Shown here: positions 2,112 to 21,410 of the stretch, piece by piece
Position numbering within the stretch: the stretch's first letter is position 1
How the letters are laid out: each line of letters starts with the position of its first letter
Source of the DNA: Naegleria gruberi
Lineage: Eukaryota
Direction: 5' to 3' (one strand)
Assembly: GCA_000004985.1 (NCBI GenBank)
Contig: GG738864.1
Length of the DNA: 64,000 bases
Made by a program: the position numbers and the translations under genes
The notes under the pieces: generated by a model
Database searches by the model: none
What the model saw: the letters and a program-made list of their open reading frames with translations, nothing else
What the model was told of the DNA's origin: nothing

Positions 2112-4196
2112 TTACACTGATACTGAAACTTGTTGAGTTTCTTCTTCTGATTTCACAGCAGAAGTTGCTTCTGGAAGAGTTTCTTCTTTTTGAGATTTAA
2201 GTGCTTCCTTTTGTTCATGGAGTGATGGTTTGAACTTGGCAACAACCAAGTAAATGACACAAATCACTAATGAAACAACTGACATGAAGATACAAATTGT
2301 CATGAAACCAAATTCTGGTTGACCATTTTCCTTAAAACGATCAATAGCTTGAGAAAGTCCAAAGGCAATCAAAGTTGTCAAGATAATGTAACATGAGTAT
2401 AAGAAACTCATGACAGCTGCCAGCTCATTAACACCAGTCTTTTCGTTTGGTTCTTCAGACAGAGTTGATTGCAAATAAGCAACTTGAGAAATATCACCAG
2501 CAGCCCAAGAACCTGAAATTAACATCATGGCAGGAACCATACAAATAGCAAATATCAAGTTGTCATCAGTCTTTTCATTAAATGTCAAGAATGGGAAAAT
2601 CCACATCAAATTCAAAAACAAGCAATCCAAAACAATCCAAACTGTTGGAAGTTTCACCTTCTTGGCAAATATTAAGAGCATTCCAGCTCCACACAATTCA
2701 CCAAAGTTACTTCCACCCAACAGAATTCCAGAATAAGATCCCTTCTTGAGGATGTTCTTACTGTAAGCAGGGAGGAAGATATTTTCAATCAATCTATGGA
2801 GAACTTGTGGAATGACAAAGCATGGAATCAACCAAATGTAATATCTGTTGGTGAGGACTAATTTGGCACCAATGTACATGCTCTTGAAATAATTCTTGAT
2901 GACAGTTCCAATCTTTTTCAAAATTCTTAAAACTTTGTTGTTTGGTTGAGGAGTTGTTTCTTGAGCTGAGGTTGTAGGAGCAGATTCAGTTGAAGGAACA
3001 TTAACTTGTTCTTTGGTTTCAGAATCTTCAAAGATTTCAACTTCCTTCACAGTAATGAAGAAGAGGAAAATGGAAGCAGCAATGAAAAATACTGGAATGT
3101 GGAAGAGAGCAAAAATAGTTCCCATCTTTTCAATGAAAACACTTGATAAGAAGGCACCAACTGTACCTGCCAATTCATACGTTATGTGAACACCTGCATT
3201 AATTCTCTTCAGCACTGACGATTCATTATTACCTAAAATGGAAGCTGGTATAATCTTTCTCAAAACTTCCATCACACCAACGCTGAATCCAATGAAAATG
3301 TAAATAGGGAAGATAATCCAAGGAGTCCACCAACCAGCAGTGGTCAAAGTGCCACCTGTCGAAGCTTCCAAAATAATCATGACCACCACCAAAAGGGCAA
3401 AGAAAACCAAAGAAAGACAATACAATCTGGTAGCTCTAATAATTTTCAAGAGACCTTCAACAGTTGATGAAGAAATGGATTGAGCCAAACCAAATGAAAT
3501 TGTTAACAAGCTCAAAATTGTGGTAGCTCCCAAAGCATTTCCATCCAATCTATTCAAAATGGTCAACCCAATAGCTCCTGATAATGTTTCATATGAAAAT
3601 TTGAAACACATTGTACCTAGTAAGAATAATATCAGATTGGCAACTCTTCTCTTGAATCCCTTTGGCCTTTTCTTTTCAGTAGTTTGATCTTGTGTTTTGT
3701 GTGATTTGTGGTGGGTTTGATGTTGAAAATGATGAATTTGATTATCAGTGTGAACCATAGTTGGTAAAACGTTCTCGTTAAAGCAATCAAGCACATCATC
3801 AATATTATTGGCAACATTTTCTGAAGTATCCGAAACTGATGAACTCGATGTGATGGTATTAGTAGTAGTATTAGTTAATGTTACAGTGTGATTGTGATTA
3901 TGTTGGTGAATTAAATTCAATTGAGATGGAATTGTACAAAGTTTCAGATCTAAATCTGAAATATCATTTACATTGGTTTCTGGTGGAATATCTACATTTT
4001 CTGCTTCAAAAACAGCCCGTTCTTTAACTTGTTTAGATTCTGATTTGCCTAAATCAACAGCACGATGATTATCAGCAGTTGATTCTTCTGTTTGAGAATG
4101 CAAGTGAGGACTAGTCGATTCTTCAACGACAATAACTTGAATTGTTACTTCTTCTTCTTCTCTGTGTTGAGTACTATTTTCATTCGAAACAGTCAT
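2112..4196 (-). CDS. Polytopic membrane transporter, MFS-like, about 12 TM segments, with a long hydrophilic N-terminus (His/Thr-rich) and an acidic C-terminus
   Basis: 694 aa ORF with multiple hydrophobic helices (for example LILFLLGTMCF, IIFPIYIFIGFSVGV, VFFIAASIFLFFI). ATG preceded by in-frame TGA/TAG. TAA stop. Confidence 0.45.
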   Translation of the reverse strand: MTVSNENSTQHREEEEVTIQVIVVEESTSPHLHSQTEESTADNHRAVDLGKSESKQVKERAVFEAENVDIPPETNVNDISDLDLKLCTIPSQLNLIHQHNHNHTVTLTNTTTNTITSSSSVSDTSENVANNIDDVLDCFNENVLPTMVHTDNQIHHFQHQTHHKSHKTQDQTTEKKRPKGFKRRVANLILFLLGTMCFKFSYETLSGAIGLTILNRLDGNALGATTILSLLTISFGLAQSISSSTVEGLLKIIRATRLYCLSLVFFALLVVVMIILEASTGGTLTTAGWWTPWIIFPIYIFIGFSVGVMEVLRKIIPASILGNNESSVLKRINAGVHITYELAGTVGAFLSSVFIEKMGTIFALFHIPVFFIAASIFLFFITVKEVEIFEDSETKEQVNVPSTESAPTTSAQETTPQPNNKVLRILKKIGTVIKNYFKSMYIGAKLVLTNRYYIWLIPCFVIPQVLHRLIENIFLPAYSKNILKKGSYSGILLGGSNFGELCGAGMLLIFAKKVKLPTVWIVLDCLFLNLMWIFPFLTFNEKTDDNLIFAICMVPAMMLISGSWAAGDISQVAYLQSTLSEEPNEKTGVNELAAVMSFLYSCYIILTTLIAFGLSQAIDRFKENGQPEFGFMTICIFMSVVSLVICVIYLVVAKFKPSLHEQKEALKSQKEETLPEATSAVKSEEETQQVSVSV

Positions 4197-5901: not shown

Positions 5902-7164
5902 TTGGTGGCAAAAAACGAAACTCTGAAAAATCCACACAAAAAAATGTCTGAATATCCTACCATGACATCGTCCTCAGTGGCATTGCCTCGCCACCAATCC
6001 AACAATAATTCGGCCAACAAACGAACCATCCATCAAGTAGTGGTCGAAACCAGACCACCTCAAACTCCATCACTGGACGAAATTAGTGATGGTGTTGAAG
6101 ATGAGCTTAATACCACAATTAATACTCATCCACAAACACAACCAATGAAAAAGTATAAATTTGATTTGGAAATTAATAGAATTGATGATGAAGATAATCA
6201 AGATGATGAAATTGGTTGTTCCGAAAAGATTGAAGATGAAGATGAAGAAGAACAAGAATTGAAACCAAGACAAAGTTTTACTCAAGAAAATACGACACCA
6301 AATGTTGATGATATTGAGATGGAGGTAGATAATGAAGAAGATCCATCGATCAGTGAAAAGAATGATGGAGGAAATAATCAAGATTTAAACAATGATGTTG
6401 CTGCAGGACAGGAACAGGAAACACAAGGTAATGATGATGGAAATGGTTTGGAAATTCCTCAACCAATCGAAACTGGCCATACTAACCATGGAATGTTGAA
6501 TTATTTTGAAGATTTTGCATTAGAGATGGATAGCTCTGGACGAGTTTATTTTGAAGTGGAGATTTGTCATCAGACACCTTTGGTTGAGGATGAAGTTTCA
6601 TTCGAGATTGGAATTTGTAATAGTAATGAAGAATTGATAGCTATGAATAATTGTGGAAAAGTTCAATTGAATATGGAAAGTGTCATGGATATGGGAGTTG
6701 GATTGTTGAAAGAGAATGATGTAGTTGGTGTGCTTTTCAGTTTTGGAAAGATTTACTTTGTGCACAATGGAAAGAGAATTGCTCATGGTTTTGATTGGAA
6801 AGATATTCAGAATAGTTCTGGAAAGATTGTTTGTAGAAATAACTCTCAAAAGTTCTGTATTAAGAATAATAATTTTCTCTATTCTGGATATAGGAAAGTA
6901 TCAGGAAAGGATGATGCTCTTTCTGCTGCCATTAAAACTCCATTCACTGAGGTGATTCAGAAAATTACTCAACTCGAGATGGATTATTTAGTGAAAGAGA
7001 AGGAGAATAGAGAAATGAAATTATTCCACAATAATTTGAGTGCTAGAATGACGTTGAGTGAAGAGGAAGTTTCTCAACTTTCTGATATTAATATTTTCAA
7101 TTTGCAAAGCGTTATTCTTCAATCAATGACCTTGTTAAATGATGAGCTGAAAAATCGTAAATAA
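5902..7164 (+). CDS. SPRY (B30.2-like) domain protein with acidic, low-complexity N-terminal half
   Basis: 420 aa. C-terminal region VYFEVEI...GICNSNEE...GVLFSFGKIYFVHNGKRIAHGF matches SPRY beta-sandwich motifs. D/E-rich N-terminus. Confidence 0.5.
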   Translation: MVAKNETLKNPHKKMSEYPTMTSSSVALPRHQSNNNSANKRTIHQVVVETRPPQTPSLDEISDGVEDELNTTINTHPQTQPMKKYKFDLEINRIDDEDNQDDEIGCSEKIEDEDEEEQELKPRQSFTQENTTPNVDDIEMEVDNEEDPSISEKNDGGNNQDLNNDVAAGQEQETQGNDDGNGLEIPQPIETGHTNHGMLNYFEDFALEMDSSGRVYFEVEICHQTPLVEDEVSFEIGICNSNEELIAMNNCGKVQLNMESVMDMGVGLLKENDVVGVLFSFGKIYFVHNGKRIAHGFDWKDIQNSSGKIVCRNNSQKFCIKNNNFLYSGYRKVSGKDDALSAAIKTPFTEVIQKITQLEMDYLVKEKENREMKLFHNNLSARMTLSEEEVSQLSDINIFNLQSVILQSMTLLNDELKNRK

Positions 7165-7241
7165 GCAGAGCTCTCTACATTATAGAGTTTCAATAATCAG
7201 TTTGAAAATGAATTTCAATTTATAATATACAATACACCTTC

Positions 7242-9095
7242 TTATTCTGAAACAGAAGCTCCTTTTCTTCTCATTACCAAATTACCAATCATGTACTTGG
7301 TAGTCAGAGTTTGAGCAATAGTTCCAATACCATCCACACCAATCTTTTCATTGTTACCAATATCGACACGTTTGAGAGTTTTGTGATCGATAAGAGCCTT
7401 GACTAAACTCTTGGCACCTGCATTATCGAATGGATTTCCGTGTAAACTCAAATCCTTGAGTCCTCTATTGTAAAGGATACCGTCATTACATAAACGAATA
7501 AGACCCTCTGATCCAATAGCATTGAATGACAAGTCCAAAGTTGCCAATGTCTTATTGGCCTTCAATCCTTCAGCGAGAGCTGAGCAACCTTCATCTCCAA
7601 TATTATTATGACCCAAATCCAAACGTTTGAGAAGTGAATTTGAGCATAGAGCTTTGGAAATTGATTTGGCACCATCTGAACCGACTCTATTATAGGAAAT
7701 ATCAAGTCTTTTGAGTGAAACATTGCCTAGTAAGAGATCGCTCAAATAAACACAACCAACATTTCCAATATTATTATGTGAAAGAGTTAATCTCTTCAAT
7801 GTAATGTTAATAAATAGACCGTCTATTAAATCACAAATACCAAAATCAGAAATCAAGTTAAATGACATATCAAGTGAAGTAATAGTTTGATTATCAGCCA
7901 AACCATGGGCCAATAACTTTAAATGTTCATCACCAACATTACAATTGACAATGGATAAACTCTTGAGTGAAACTCTAGAACTTTGAATACAGGTTGTAGT
8001 AAGAGCTTTCAAATCTGAAATTGTGAAAGGATCTTCACCTTCCAAAACTAATTTTTCAATATTAGATTCACGTTTAGCATCATTTTCCTTGTCTTCATCT
8101 GAAGAAGTATCAATAGCAGCAACTGCAGTCAATAACATAACAACAGACAAGAGTGGTCTCTCAACTCCACAAATTTTACAATCGACAAAGTAATCCTCAA
8201 CGAAAATACAAGCTCTAATTCTCTTAACCCAATCCTTGGCATCTTGCATACTTGGAGCAGCCATAAACAGTTCACGATCAGCTGCAATAACACAAAACTT
8301 GTACTTGTAGGCATTGCTTTCGAGTTTTCTTTGAATTTTTGATTGATCACCTCCACCTGCTGAGCTTTCATTATTTGCAGATGATGAATTGGATCCCTTA
8401 GTATTGGTTTCTTCATCTTCATCATCACTATCTAAATCTTCATTATCTAAAACTGTATTAATTCTAATAGTTTGAAAGAAACTATCATAATTTTGAATAT
8501 CTCCCAAATAATAAACTTGAGCTCCCTTCAAATCCATTCTACCTTTGACATCATTTTCATTCTTTTTAGCATTTTTGAAATAGGTCAACACTGAACCTTT
8601 AATTTGGAAATAACGCTATTTACACATTCATCACAAATTTCACATAAATTTCACATAAATTGTTATTCGAAATACATTATTAAAATAAATTTTCATCAAA
8701 TTCAATTTAAATTTCATCACCAATCATCATTATAACCACAATACAAATTACACATTTCATACGAAACTCAACTAAACACTTACCTTCTTCCAACTCTTCA
8801 CCACACGTCCTTCCTTTATCAAAAACCCTTCCTTCCACACTTTTTCATTATATTCCGTATAAATATCGAATCCCTGTGATCCAGGTGTACCAACAGGACT
8901 CGAAGGAGAAGACAAATCATGATTTGAATTTGTTCTGGAAATTGTTTGCAAAGTTGTTGGAGTAATTTGTGAAGTTCCACCGAGGTAGGAAAATCCGCTG
9001 CCACTTCCTTGTTTTTGTAGAGGTGAAGTGGTAGTTGGTGATCCTGTTGGTGTAGAGCTGCCTGAATCCTTCTTCTTGTTGAAGATGCTACGCAT
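7242..9095 (-). CDS. PH-domain plus ribonuclease-inhibitor-type LRR protein, two exons (exon 1 about 8784-9095, exon 2 7242-8605)
   Basis: Exon 1 ends ...WKEGFLIKEGRVVKSWKK then GTAAGT. Exon 2 resumes ...KGSVLTYFKNAKK, completing a PH-domain start. The C-terminal half has repeated LxxLxLxxNxIGxxG units (RNI/NLRC-like). The alternate-frame ORF 8819-9190 is rejected. Confidence 0.55.
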
Positions 9096-11851: not shown

Positions 11852-12843
11852 TTACTTCTTTTCAGACTTTTTCTTCAAATTGGTAATAGTTTCCTTAAGA
11901 ATCGGATCAGCATAGGCTTGAGCTTGAGCATCAGCTTCTCTGGTGATCATTTGTTCAAGACCTTGAATTTGTTGCATTCTCAAATTCTTTAAACATAATT
12001 TGGTTGCAATTGGAGGATTTCTTGCAATACGAGCTGCATAGTCCAATGCCTTTTCTCTGAGTTTATCTTCACCTTCGACAACTTCATAGACCATTCCAAT
12101 TTCGAGAGCTTTTTGAGCAGAAATCAAGTCACCAGTCAATAATAAAACACTGGCATTTTGATGACCAAGTAAATAAGGGAGGAATATGTAGAGGCCATAC
12201 CTGGTGATAAACCAATATTTACAAAGTTGACACCAAGTTTGGCACTTGTTTCAGCAAATCTGACATCTGTGGCCAAACTGATGGCCAAACCAGCACCTAC
12301 AGCATGTCCATTCAAAGCAGAAATGGTTGGAACTGGAGAGAATTTCAAAAGTGGTTCCAAGAATGAATTATAAAATTGAATCATTCTTCCAGAATTATTA
12401 TATGGTTGATCATTACAACGTTCCAATAAGAAATCAAAATCACCACCTGCACTGAAAGCAGATTTAACACCAGGAGTTTTAGATGGAGCACCTGTCAAGA
12501 CAATACATCCCAAATTCTTGTTTTTCATAATTTTATCACTTGTGAAAAGATCTCTAAATTGTTGAGCAGTTTTAACACAGAGTGCATTCATCTTTTCTGG
12601 CTTGTTAATAGTAACAATTCCGATGGTGGTTTCTTGATTGAATGGAGTGGTGAATTTTGGAGCAATTTGTGAGAGTGGAACTTCTTCAAAGACAATAAAT
12701 TGTTCTTGATCCGATGATGATGATGAACGATTCATGGACATGGTAGAGAAGGATCTTGATGAAGGCATCTTCATCATTGAAAAGCGAGAGGAAGAAGTGG
12801 CTCCAACAAGGGAGAGGACACGTCTTGAAGTGTTTTTGATCAT
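11852..12843 (-). CDS. Mitochondrial enoyl-CoA hydratase/isomerase (crotonase family), interrupted by a 1-nt frame break near 12172-12186
   Basis: N-terminal R/S-rich presequence. Upstream frame reads ...CIVLTGAPS...AGGDFDFL...ALNGHAVGAGL...NIGLSPGMASTY. Downstream frame resumes LPYLLGHQNASVLLLTGDLISAQKALEIGMV, aligning residue-for-residue with the ECHS1 segment [32 protein letters not shown]. No room for an intron; one nucleotide appears to be missing in a TCCTCCC run. Confidence 0.6.
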
Positions 12844-13143
12844 TTTTTTTGATTGGTGTGAAAAGAGGTTAAATTTTGAATGGGTGATTGATTTCTATTG
12901 GATAGTAATTTTTGTTTGTAATCTTTCAATTTATAATGTTTGAGAAATCAAATTGAGGTTGTAAAGTTCATGTTTTATTCAATTGAATCATTGAAAAACA
13001 AATGAAATCCAAAATCACTTGAAAATATATTTCCATTTTCTAATAAATATACGATTCTTTACACTAGTTTATTGAAGATTTTTACAAACCTTCCTAATTA
13101 ATATTTCAATTACCTTCCAATTCAAGGTAAATAGATAATTTAT

Positions 13144-14013
13144 TTAATCGAGGGATTGAGATGCAAAACGTCCAGTATAAACAGCTCTACCTTCAAGCTT
13201 CATAAAGACGAATTGACACAAGTGAGTGCCTGGATACAATGCAAGAGAATTAGGACTAATGGAGTGTCAAAATGCAAAATTCATTTCAATAAACTTACCT
13301 AGCATTGAAAATTTCCAAGACTTGCTTGTTGTTAATACCTGGTTGCATGAAACCAGCAGTGATGTGAATAGCAAGACCCATACGAGCGAATCTAGATCTA
13401 CCTTCCAACAAACCACAGAAACTTGGTGAAATACTGACAGTTTCTTCAGTGATGCCCAAAACAGTTTGACCTGGTTTGAGAACAAAGCATTCACCCTTTG
13501 GAACCTTAACAACCTTTGAGTATTGCTTATAGTCAACGTCATCAGTAATTGGAATAACATCTTCGGAAACTGTCATTTCTCTGAATTCATCTCCAAGAGT
13601 TCTGTATAAGCATTATAAAATTGCATCATATTCAATATTGCATTTTGTATCATCATTTTGTGGTCAATAACATTTTCATTGCATTTTGATGAAATTTTTC
13701 ATGAATTTAAAAACACAAAGATTTTAAAAAGACACCTACAAGTCATAAGAAGCAGGACCCAAGTGAGACAAGTTGAATGGAGTGATGGTAATTTGTCTAT
13801 AGAGTTGCATCATTAAAAAGGTTCATATCAAACGTTACATTGATCATCACAATGACACACAACAATACATTCAAACATGGTCATCATTCCGAGTAATAAT
13901 ATCAAACAAAAGAGTAGCAGATTTATTGTTGGCACCCTGATGTGTGTCCAACCTTCTTCAACTTACTTGGCTTGAATAGCTTTCAAAATCGAGTCGCGGG
14001 AGAGAACAGACAT
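13144..14013 (-). CDS. dcd: dCTP deaminase (Dcd/dUTPase superfamily, bacterial type) with 4 exons: 13967-14013, 13740-13796, 13299-13601, 13144-13255
   Basis: Spliced protein MSVLSRDSILKAIQAKKQITITPFNLSHLGPASYDLTLG...EGRSRFARMGLAIHITAGFMQPGINNKQVLEIFNASPNSLALYPGTHLCQFVFMKLEGRAVYTGRFASQSLD aligns along its length with E. coli Dcd (GRSSLARLGL, LPLALRPG motifs). Donors GTAAGT, GTAGGT, GTAAGT. Total 519 nt, in frame. Confidence 0.6.
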
Positions 14014-14443: not shown

Positions 14444-15877
14444 ATGAAACTTATCAATTTTCTAAGTCTTCTTGATAGCTGTTGGTGCACTGTCTTCTAA
14501 CTTGGTTTCGTCACAAGAAGTTAGGGATGTTTCTTTGAAAGTATGTTAAAAATCTCTAGATTTAGTCAATTACAAGCTTTTAAGATACACTGGCTTCTCT
14601 ATCGACCTAATTCAATTTCTTGTTTCCAAAATGACAAACGTGTCCATTGAATTTTATGAAGCTCCAGATGGTACCTTTGGTAGTCCAACTGCTGCGAATG
14701 TGAATGGAAACTGGTCAGGAACCATCGGTGAAATAATATCTGGTCGTGCTGATGTCATGATTGGCCCTTTAACAATTACTCAAAGTAGACATCAAGTCAT
14801 GGATTTTACAACAAGTTTCTTTGATGTTGGACTTTCTATTCTAACTCTTAAACAAGGAGAGGAATCTAATTTATTTTCATTCTTATTACCATTCTCGTGG
14901 GAGGTTTGGATTTTGATTTTCGTGAGTGCATTAATAGTTGCCTTGCTAACATGGGTTTTTGACCATGTTTCGCCTTATGGACATTCGAAACAATCAGACG
15001 AATCAAAGAATGAATTTGATTTTAGTGGTTCGTTAATCAATGTATGACAATATCTGGTCAAGACGGAAATCCAGGTAAAAGCTGGTCAACCAGAATCATG
15101 TTGTTAGGTTATTTCCTCTTTGTCATGATTATTCTCTCAACTTATACAGCTAATTTGGCAGCCGTCCTGACAACAAAGGTTCAATCCACAAGAGTTACTG
15201 GACTATCTGATATCAGAACCTACGGATTCAAGTTTGGTGTGGCTAAAAACTCTGCTCCTGCTTCTTACATTTCCAGCAGTGAAGACATGGCAGATATCAA
15301 AAAGAATATGGTTGTATTCGATTCCCTCGATGATTGTTTACAAGCTCTGAGAGATGGAAAGGTGGATGCTTTGATTTGGGCAAGTGCCATTCTCGAATAT
15401 ATGGCCAATCAACCACCATGTGATACTTTGGTCGTTGGTGATTTGTTTAGTCCTGGAAATTATGGTTTACCTTTTGCTAAGGGAAATTGGATGATTGGTC
15501 ATTTCACTTCGGTGTTGTTGTCGATGAGAGAAAGTGGACTTGTTGAGAAACTCAAAAGGAAGTGGTGGATTGATAAGGGAAGCTGTTCATTGGTTGAATT
15601 GACACAAACAGCAACAGGTGTAAAGATTCAAGACTTGGGAGGTATCTTTTTGATTTTGGCAGGTTTTGTAGTTGTTGGTGGTGTGGTTTTGATATTCGAA
15701 TTAGTATATAGGGCTGTATATGACAAGACAAAACACAAAACTAAACATCTGAAATATCTGAATAGATTCTTGGGAGGTGAAAAGCACCTAGTTCAACGTG
15801 AGAAAGATGTACAGGAATTGAACACCACGAATATTGCAACTCCAACACTCGAAAAAGATGGGAATATGAACCAGTAA
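14444..15877 (+). pseudogene. Minimal ionotropic glutamate receptor (S1-M1-P-M3-S2-M4, no amino-terminal domain) with several reading-frame lesions; possibly a pseudogene
   Basis: Contains YTGFSIDLIQFL, GNWSGTIGEIISGRADVMIGPLTITQSR (S1), the pore/M3 STYTANLAAVLTT (the SYTANLAAF signature), S2 and M4. The frame breaks at about 15044-15047, so the track splits it into ORFs 14631-15047 and 15044-15877. An in-frame TAA lies at about 14547-14549 within a 36-nt GTATGT...AAG segment that may be a mini-intron. The signal-peptide-like start at 14444 is in yet another frame. Confidence 0.5.
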
Positions 15878-17393: not shown

Positions 17394-17466
17394 GCCGACA
17401 TAGCTCAGTTGGGAGAGCGTAAGACTGAAGATCTTAAGGTCCCTGGTTCGATCCCTGGTGTCGGCA
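17394..17466 (+). tRNA. tRNA-Phe (anticodon GAA)
   Basis: GCCGACATAGCTCAGTTGGGAGAGCGTAAGACTGAAGATCTTAAGGTCCCTGGTTCGATCCCTGGTGTCGGCA is near-identical to metazoan tRNA-Phe. Has a 7-bp acceptor stem, D-loop AGCTCAGTTGGGAGAGC and T-loop GGTTCGATCC. Followed by a TTTTT run at about 17470-17474. Confidence 0.9.
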
Positions 17467-20486: not shown

Positions 20487-21410
20487 ATGTCCGCCTCATC
20501 AAATTCTAATAATTATTCATCTGTTGTAATTGCAGGAGCAAGTGGTAATCTTGGTAACCAAATTGTTAAAGCTTTTCTCAATCAACCAAATGTTAGAACT
20601 CATATTCTTGTTAGAAATGAAAGCAAACACAAGGTTGAAGAATTGATCAAGTTGGGAGCTCACATTATTGAGGGAGATGTAACAACCTCAAGTGTTGAAG
20701 AGTTGGCTCAATCATTCAAAGGAATTGAAGTTATTGTTAGTGCACTTTCTGGTGATCATTCAGTTGTTTTTGATGGTCAACTGAAATTATTGAATGCTGC
20801 CAAGTTGAGTGGGGTTAAAAAGTTTGTTCCTTCAAGTTACGGTTTCAATTTCCAAGATTATTTGCAATTAGGTGATAGTTTACTCATTGATCCAAAGAAG
20901 AAATTGATTAATGATTTGCAATCTCAAAACCAAGTTGACTATCTATTGATTCACAATGGTTTATTCTATAGTTATGCTTTCTTTCCAGGTTTCCTATTCC
21001 AAAAGGAAAATGACACTATTAAATACTATGGAGATTTGAATGTCAAAATCCAATTGACTGACACTTTAGATATTGCCAAGTATGTTGTCGAAGCATCTTT
21101 GAATCCACAATTAAAGAACAAATCCATCAACGTTGCTGGTGATGAAAAGACCTTGGAAGAATTAGCTCACTTGAGTTTCCCTCAAACTCAACTCAAATTT
21201 GAAAAGTTGGGATCCGCCCAAGATTTGAAGAATCTCATCCAGAAAGAAATTCAACAAGGATTGAAACCAGAACAAATTGGTCCAATTATTTATCAACAAT
21301 TACAATGGATTGCAATTTCAGGAGTTGCACATCCACCAAAAACTGATAACGATCTCTTCAATGTTAAACCACTTTCATTGAATGATTATGTAAAAAATCA
21401 AAAACAATAA
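20487..21410 (+). CDS. NmrA-like / isoflavone-reductase-like NAD(P)-binding protein
   Basis: 307 aa. VVIAGASGNLGNQIVKAFL Rossmann motif. ATG start, TAA stop. Confidence 0.55.
   Translation: MSASSNSNNYSSVVIAGASGNLGNQIVKAFLNQPNVRTHILVRNESKHKVEELIKLGAHIIEGDVTTSSVEELAQSFKGIEVIVSALSGDHSVVFDGQLKLLNAAKLSGVKKFVPSSYGFNFQDYLQLGDSLLIDPKKKLINDLQSQNQVDYLLIHNGLFYSYAFFPGFLFQKENDTIKYYGDLNVKIQLTDTLDIAKYVVEASLNPQLKNKSINVAGDEKTLEELAHLSFPQTQLKFEKLGSAQDLKNLIQKEIQQGLKPEQIGPIIYQQLQWIAISGVAHPPKTDNDLFNVKPLSLNDYVKNQKQ

Follow-up and report, generated by a model that had tools for sequence, protein, structure and literature searches.

Gene structure and identity

The DNA examined in this work is a window of 64,000 nucleotides from contig GG738864.1 of Naegleria gruberi (assembly GCA_000004985.1), and the element under study is the dcd gene on its minus strand, at positions 14013-13144, whose spliced product is a dCTP deaminase (Dcd). 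Three-frame translation of 14013-13144 gave no single frame that reads through the interval; Dcd-like peptide segments lie in two different frames with stop-rich, AT-rich stretches between them, and the joining of four exons yields a coding sequence (CDS) of 519 nt that specifies 172 amino acids and then ends in TAA.

Exon 1 (13967-14013, CDS nt 1-47) opens with the ATG at 14013-14011, and an in-frame TAA that precedes this ATG by 12 nt excludes an N-terminal extension; the proteins of N. lovaniensis, Willaertia and Eremiobacterota begin at the same point. Intron 1 (13797-13966, 170 nt, GTAAGT..TAG) interrupts the frame in phase 2 after CDS nt 47 and is followed by exon 2 (13740-13796, CDS nt 48-104), by intron 2 (13602-13739, 138 nt, GTAGGT..CAG, phase 2 after CDS nt 104), by exon 3 (13299-13601, CDS nt 105-407), which contains the entire active-site block, by intron 3 (13256-13298, 43 nt, GTAAGT..TAG, phase 2 after CDS nt 407) and finally by exon 4 (13144-13255, CDS nt 408-519) with its TAA stop at 13146-13144; all of these features are on the minus strand and all three acceptors are AG. 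The GC content of the CDS is 0.40 (0.401) and that of its third codon positions (GC3) is 0.33, as against 0.23-0.34 in the neighbouring open reading frames (ORFs), while the GC content of the region, 0.35, equals that of the remainder of the window. A sequence-only reading of this stretch had already proposed the same coordinates, four exons, introns of 43-170 nt with canonical signals and a 172-aa product, every one of which proved exact when the exons were joined across the GT..AG introns, and the GC3 values bear out the native AT-rich codon usage that it had ascribed to the gene.

An exact-sequence look-up showed the spliced product to be identical, residue for residue, to the protein deposited as "dCTP deaminase [Naegleria gruberi]" (EFC45263.1, XP_002678007.1, UniProt D2VD40), and the exon model reproduces the deposited annotation. 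The observation is thus correct and already known, since the gene is annotated (XP_002678007.1) and the accession was analysed in print in 2023 by Liang, Mower & Chia (MBE 40:msad268; PMC10733785). Supplementary Table 1 of that work lists Naegleria gruberi XP002678007, on the 442 kb contig GG738864, as a "credible homolog" and records that its introns are annotated, that its neighbours are eukaryotic and that its closest prokaryote is a Ca. Eremiobacteraeota bacterium (54.44%), and Supplementary Table 2 gives a CDS GC content of 40.1% over 519 nt for XP_002678007, matching the 0.401 computed here.

The gene is also represented in a metagenome: a 902-nt contig in ENA (L003, PRJEB11402) aligns to window positions 13037-13978, its identity being 99.2% from exon 3 through the 3' flank and 94.9% in the 5' portion of the gene, which indicates that this sample holds a very close N. 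gruberi-like strain. The prokaryote-style gene call on the contig took in exon 3 alone; a metagenome gene call comprising exon 3 only (P0008) is 100% identical to exon 3.

Family membership and fold

As judged both by hidden Markov models and by fold, the product is an enzyme of the Dcd family, within the dUTPase superfamily. Residues 3-155 match Pfam PF22769 (DCD) over profile positions 1-152 of 153 with 147.9 bits against a cutoff of 27, and the NCBIfam equivalog model TIGR02274 (dCTP deaminase) gives 125 bits against a curated cutoff of 92.8; the family match cannot be put down to chance because the former has an E-value of 3.2e-43 and the latter lies above its cutoff. All 15 sequence matches in the PDB were deposited under names of the dCTP deaminase family, led by Bacillus halodurans 4XJC (74.8 bits), Mycobacterium tuberculosis 2QLP (70.9 bits) and the Escherichia coli enzyme (65.1 bits). 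An AlphaFold model of the N. gruberi monomer, built on an alignment of 58 sequences, reached a pLDDT of 95.5 and a pTM of 0.88, and Foldseek placed nearest to it the bifunctional dCTP deaminase:dUTPases (DCD:DUT) of M. tuberculosis and B. halodurans together with E. coli Dcd (TM 0.85-0.88, root-mean-square deviation 1.6-2.0 A). The 25 best PDB fold matches are without exception Dcd or DCD:DUT structures, with TM values of 0.78-0.88, and include the solved E138A and E138D variants of E. coli Dcd.

The comparison with E. coli Dcd (1XS1) is instructive in both directions. The fold is the same (TM 0.86) and the deamination residues correspond, given that Ser104 (codon at 13396-13394), Arg108 (13384-13382) and Glu131 (13315-13313) align in HMMER with E. 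coli Ser111, Arg115 and Glu138; within the 48-member eukaryotic clade described below, Arg108 and Glu131 are invariant, and position 104 is Ser in 47 members and Thr in one. On the other hand, identity is only 28%, E. coli Dcd has some 20 additional C-terminal residues, and its Arg126, salt-bridged to Asp128 in a manner that blocks hydrolysis, is aligned with Naegleria Phe119 (13351-13349), Asp128 itself being aligned with Gln121 (13345-13343). The sequence-only reading had the product aligning end to end with E. coli Dcd, a slight overstatement: the fold alignment does extend over 168 columns, whereas HMMER aligns only residues 26-161 with residues 26-168 of the 193 of the E. coli enzyme. Short-form enzymes provide a better fit than E. 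coli Dcd, as exemplified by B. halodurans 4XJC, which takes in residues 3-169 of the query.

Conservation in Naegleria lovaniensis and the question of contamination

For a comparison of intron positions across six eukaryotic loci, each deposited protein was aligned, with splicing allowed, to the locus that encodes it. In N. lovaniensis all three introns occur at the same nucleotide positions and in the same phases (CDS nt 47, 104 and 407, all phase 2), with lengths of 176, 110 and 53 nt. The exons of the two species are 74-81% identical and free of indels (80.7% for exon 2 and 74.1% for exon 4), whereas the introns have changed in length and retain about 60% identity. The 123 differences between the two coding sequences are distributed over codon positions 1, 2 and 3 as 27, 10 and 86, and this distribution, together with indel-free exons set against diverged introns, argues for purifying selection on exactly the dcd reading frame.

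As the Dcd family is typical of prokaryotes, and as Dcd contaminants are known from other eukaryotic assemblies (examples were excluded in Supplementary Table 1 of PMC10733785), it might be supposed that the locus is a bacterial segment brought in by contamination or misassembly, and that its introns are artefacts of a forced gene model. This explanation is refuted by the flanks, the introns, GC3, synteny and a promoter scan. GT..AG splicing removes precisely the three stop-rich interruptions; six other ORFs of the window encode proteins identical to those of N. gruberi NEG-M and lie, on both flanks, on the same 441,990-bp scaffold as dcd; the gene, its introns and its neighbour are all matched in N. 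lovaniensis, where a gene for enoyl-CoA hydratase follows dcd on the same strand just as it does in N. gruberi; GC content across the region equals that of the rest of the window and GC3 is host-like; and a scan for bacterial promoters and terminators around dcd disclosed no enrichment (10 sigma-70-like sites, against 7.4 +/- 2.4 in shuffles). The view of the sequence-only reading that the gene is not a contaminant is therefore upheld by its spliceosomal introns, exact N. gruberi flanks, shared enoyl-CoA hydratase neighbour and host-like GC3. The splice junctions themselves are drawn from the comparative evidence and the deposited model.

Relatives and shared introns

The closest proteins are those of N. 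lovaniensis (84% identity) and Willaertia (76%). The next band, at 50-61% identity, comprises many transcriptome sequences from EukProt and a range of named eukaryotes at 53-61% (dictyostelids, Acrasis, skoliomonads, Barthelona, Paratrimastix, Andalucia and Arcella), as well as bacteria of the Eremiobacterota, Vulcanimicrobiota and Xenobia; further named near relatives belong to Ca. Uabimicrobium (Planctomycetota), Synechococcus (Cyanobacteria), the Elusimicrobia/Omnitrophota and a Woesearchaeote. In a neighbour-joining (NJ) tree of 228 sequences and 169 columns with 200 bootstraps, all 27 named eukaryotic sequences fall into one clade of 48 members that holds no named bacterium; the eukaryotes remain free of named bacteria in 87% of the bootstraps, and Naegleria groups with Willaertia in 100%. 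The genes most closely related to this clade come from diverse bacteria and some archaea and lack introns.

These short-form bacterial enzymes (Eremiobacterota, Vulcanimicrobiota, Ca. Uabimicrobium, Synechococcus, Elusimicrobia) are 170-176 aa long, 49-56% identical to the Naegleria protein end to end, and near-identical to it in the motifs LEGRSRFARLGL, FMQPGINN and QVLEI. They differ in that their genes are intronless and stand in bacterial neighbourhoods, as does the Eremiobacterota homologue, which lies among bacterial genes, and in that positions 133 and 135 are S/A and V in them as opposed to F/Y and A in eukaryotes.

The dictyostelids offer the closest characterised comparison. Dictyostelium discoideum Dcd1 (DDB0230112) belongs to the same clade, in whose published data set the Naegleria accession is included; the Naegleria protein is 54-61% identical to the five dictyostelid orthologues over the full length, and it has in common with this system the length class of about 171 aa, the position of intron 1 (seen in D. 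purpureum) and the active-site motif F-x-[QN]-P-G, which in D. purpureum reads FMNPG. By contrast, Naegleria has two extra introns that, across the six eukaryotic loci compared, were confined to the genus, and function has been tested for the Dictyostelium protein only. Social amoebae carry in addition a second, unrelated paralogue, Dcd2 (PMC10733785).

Intron 1, in phase 2 after nt 47, is common to N. gruberi, N. lovaniensis, Willaertia magna, Acrasis kona and Dictyostelium purpureum, and corresponds to i1, the intron reported by Liang et al. to be common to Amoebozoa, fungi and Naegleria (PMC10733785). The position of intron 2 is empty in Willaertia, Acrasis and D. purpureum. Intron 3 (nt 407, phase 2) is separated by 4 nt from a phase 0 intron at nt 411 in Acrasis, D. 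purpureum and Paratrimastix, Willaertia having an intron at neither site, and this proximity suggests either intron sliding or an independent gain beside an old site. The nt-411 introns are found at 3449-3486 of locus L004, 2051-2124 of L005 and 3635-3999 of L006. Re-modelling of Naegleria intron 3 onto the nt-411 site was rejected, as read-through of exon 3 meets a TAA at once (AGG TAA).

Since Willaertia, Acrasis and D. purpureum have intron 1 as well and the protein belongs to a eukaryote-only clade, the acquisition must be old, and the "old horizontal acquisition or ancestral retention" put forward by the sequence-only reading finds support in both facts. That reading had regarded placement within a broadly distributed eukaryotic clade as telling against it; the gene does lie in a broad, if patchy, clade (Discoba, Amoebozoa, Metamonada, some fungi and others), yet an old acquisition or retention fits this distribution all the same, and what the distribution does rule out is a transfer specific to Naegleria. 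The published maximum-likelihood (ML) analysis points the same way, with eukaryotic Dcd1 recovered as monophyletic (bootstrap support, BS, 92%) and nested within prokaryotes (BS 100%), in a clade that takes in Amoebozoa, some fungi, Metamonada and, from Discoba, the genus Naegleria (PMC10733785). N. fowleri likewise has a dcd orthologue (PMC10733785).

A recent bacterial transfer into the Naegleria lineage, with likeness to the other eukaryotic copies brought about by convergence or shared donors, would be the competing account, and we regard it as very improbable. It could appeal to the closest named prokaryotic proteins (54-56% in Eremiobacterota, Vulcanimicrobiota and Xenobia), which fall only slightly below the non-heterolobosean eukaryotes (55-61%), and to the low NJ support (15%) for the exact 48-member clade, but it is difficult to reconcile with an intron 1 identical in position and phase in Naegleria, Willaertia, Acrasis and Dictyostelium, with the separation of named eukaryotes from named bacteria in 87% of bootstraps, with the BS of 92% for eukaryote monophyly in the published ML tree (PMC10733785) and with host-like GC3. 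The same 15% does count against our own reading of an ancient acquisition, as does the 0% support for the sister group; the claim about a donor lineage that the NJ tree might have furnished was dropped for the latter reason, and strict eukaryote monophyly and the donor lineage rest mainly on the published ML tree (PMC10733785).

Some homologues are considerably longer than the Naegleria protein. The best match in a library of representatives at 50% identity is a Palpitomonas bilix transcript product of 383 aa (P0133), in which a 213-aa N-terminal region that matches nothing in Pfam precedes the Dcd domain at residues 214-383. N-terminal extensions, possibly for use in targeting, occur also in Paratrimastix (209 aa), in P0065 (258 aa) and in further homologues.

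The active site

The residues needed for the second half-reaction, the hydrolysis of dUTP, are given by Pecsi et al. 2012 (PMC3360063), with reference to Helt et al. 2008 and Johansson et al. 2005, as Ser102, Asp119 and Gln148 in M. tuberculosis numbering; Asp119 holds the catalytic water and is described as conserved throughout the dUTPase superfamily. In monofunctional enzymes of the E. coli type, hydrolysis is blocked by Arg126, which sits at the site of the nucleophilic water in a salt bridge to Asp128, and in bifunctional enzymes an aromatic residue takes the position of Arg126 (PMC3360063). These rules come from PMC3360063, 'Life without dUTPase' (PMC5122711) containing none that separate mono- from bifunctional Dcd; Liang et al. 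do not address the question, the word "bifunctional" occurring in their reference list only (PMC10733785).

In the HMMER alignment Naegleria Phe119 and Gln121 correspond to E. coli Arg126 and Asp128, and Gln121 occupies the position of M. tuberculosis Asp119, a combination that fits neither the E. coli type nor the bifunctional type of PMC3360063. Asp at position 121 is encountered in none of the 139 aligned homologues that are at least 45% identical (97 have Gln, 31 Asn and 11 another residue) and, over the 228 aligned homologues, returns only in more distant relatives; Arg at position 119 was seen in 0 of the 228. M. tuberculosis Ser102 and Gln148, by contrast with Asp119, have conserved counterparts in Ser104 and Gln150. 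We found no mention of the exchange of Asp for Gln121 in PMC10733785, PMC3360063 or PMC5122711.

Because Gln121 replaces the Asp that holds the catalytic water, and because no homologue at or above 45% identity has Asp there, we predict that N. gruberi Dcd is probably a monofunctional enzyme that forms dUTP. The prediction has to be set against that of a bifunctional dCTP deaminase:dUTPase, as in M. tuberculosis, B. halodurans and Methanocaldococcus jannaschii, which would make dUMP directly and without releasing dUTP. Much in the structure of the protein would suit the latter: the top PDB sequence matches, 4XJC and 2QLP, are bifunctional, the M. tuberculosis structures come first by Foldseek E-value (TM 0.85-0.86), Phe119 is aromatic and is not the hydrolysis-blocking Arg126 of E. 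coli Dcd, and both Ser104 and Gln150 are retained. Indeed the DCD:DUT enzymes of M. tuberculosis (Rv0321; 2QLP, 2QXX) and B. halodurans (4XJC) are the best matches among solved structures (TM 0.85-0.88, 30-33% identity), with the aromatic residue at the Arg126 position and the Ser and Gln of hydrolysis in common with Naegleria, and with the catalytic-water Asp as the point of difference. It is this last point that makes a bifunctional enzyme unlikely in our judgement, for an Asp described as indispensable is Gln121 here and is absent from 139 of 139 homologues at that level of identity. In trimeric dUTPases, a change from Asp to Asn at the catalytic-water position cripples the enzyme.

Against a monofunctional enzyme it must nonetheless be said that bifunctional enzymes, too, have an aromatic residue where Naegleria has Phe119 and that they supply the best PDB matches, so that the call derives from a single residue, and that the only functional data found for the clade in the literature consulted, the rescue of an E. 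coli dcd knockout by D. discoideum Dcd1 (PMC10733785), do not separate a dUTP-forming from a dUMP-forming activity.

A further alternative would be a Dcd-like dUTPase, as in Pyrococcus and Thermococcus, devoid of deaminase activity. Some archaeal proteins annotated as dCTP deaminases are dUTPases (PMC5122711), and the Thermococcus dUTPases 8Y1W and 9LN0 are among the fold and sequence matches; the archaeal model NF002598, however, yields 28.1 bits against a cutoff of 130, the deamination residues Glu, Ser and Arg are present, the hydrolytic Asp is missing, and the D. discoideum orthologue complements an E. coli dcd knockout (PMC10733785), all of which leaves this alternative with very little credibility.

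More tentatively, and with the odds in our estimation rather against it, the eukaryotic Dcd1 clade and its close bacterial relatives might constitute a third active-site class of dCTP deaminases, with an aromatic residue at the Arg126 site and Gln/Asn in place of Asp, which would be monofunctional through loss of the general base and not through an Arg block, or which would have an altered sugar or product specificity. None of the matches among solved structures belongs to this Gln/Asn-type subfamily.

Neighbouring genes

Downstream of dcd, at window positions 11852-12843 (minus), the enoyl-CoA hydratase gene (Pfam ECH_1) takes the form of a pair of abutting ORFs, and an intron or a frame change near 12136-12139 presumably accounts for the split. 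Its counterpart in N. lovaniensis lies at 7118-8274 of locus L001, where the order of dcd followed by enoyl-CoA hydratase is kept. A tRNA-Val(AAC) gene is situated between the two genes in N. lovaniensis (L001 6945-7018, minus), and no tRNA was found at the corresponding place of the N. gruberi window, the sole tRNA of which is a tRNA-Phe(GAA) at 17394-17466 (plus). A DDE_3 transposase-like gene is located two genes upstream of dcd in N. lovaniensis (L001 4256-5326); the dcd-proximal upstream ORFs scanned in the N. gruberi window contain no domain of the DDE_3 type.

Divergent from dcd, at 14631-15877 (plus), two abutting ORFs with Lig_chan-Glu_bd and Lig_chan domains, of the ionotropic-glutamate-receptor type, probably form a single intron-containing gene for a ligand-gated channel. 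Farther along, the product of 20487-21407 (plus), XP_002677914.1, clusters at 90% identity with XP_002682502.1, an N. gruberi protein encoded on another scaffold, and the gene is therefore taken to be recently duplicated.

Discussion

With a probability that we would put at roughly 90%, dcd1 of N. gruberi NEG-M (XP_002678007.1 / D2VD40) is a gene of the nucleus that carries introns, is kept by purifying selection and encodes a dCTP deaminase of the dUTPase fold, presumably a homotrimer. As for its origin, the data agree with the course of events already published, namely one ancient transfer from a prokaryote or from the mitochondrial ancestor to an early eukaryote, with subsequent patchy loss, eukaryote-to-eukaryote transfer, or both; Liang et al. 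favour an ancient horizontal gene transfer, and a mitochondrial origin could not be rejected in their analysis (P = 0.073; PMC10733785).

If the N. gruberi enzyme follows the mechanism established for its family, a water molecule activated by Glu131 would attack C4 of the cytosine in Mg-dCTP, giving dUTP and ammonia. By analogy with the family, and although the model built here is that of a monomer, the active sites would be expected between the subunits of a homotrimer, with dTTP probably acting as a feedback inhibitor. The enzyme would stop at dUTP, from which a separate dUTPase would then make dUMP for thymidylate synthase, and in this manner Dcd may supply dTTP in an AT-rich genome (33% GC) alongside, or instead of, the dCMP deaminase route that is usual in eukaryotes. 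For dCMP deaminase in Naegleria the published evidence amounts to "modest support" (BLASTp 5e-11; PMC10733785). Neither the zinc motif of dCMP deaminase nor motif 3 of dUTPase was found in the six frames of the 64-kb window, a result that says nothing on the remaining genome.

Two minor leads emerge from the comparison, the pattern of Asp replaced by Gln or Asn in the active site and the near-coincident introns at nt 407 and nt 411. In broader terms, dcd offers a clear textbook example of how the gene for an enzyme of nucleotide metabolism of prokaryotic type has turned into a normal nuclear gene in protists, and it bears on the supply of dTTP in AT-rich amoebae. Should Naegleria truly rely on Dcd in place of dCMP deaminase, this would be of mild interest, in that it might point to a possible parasite-specific target in N. 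fowleri.

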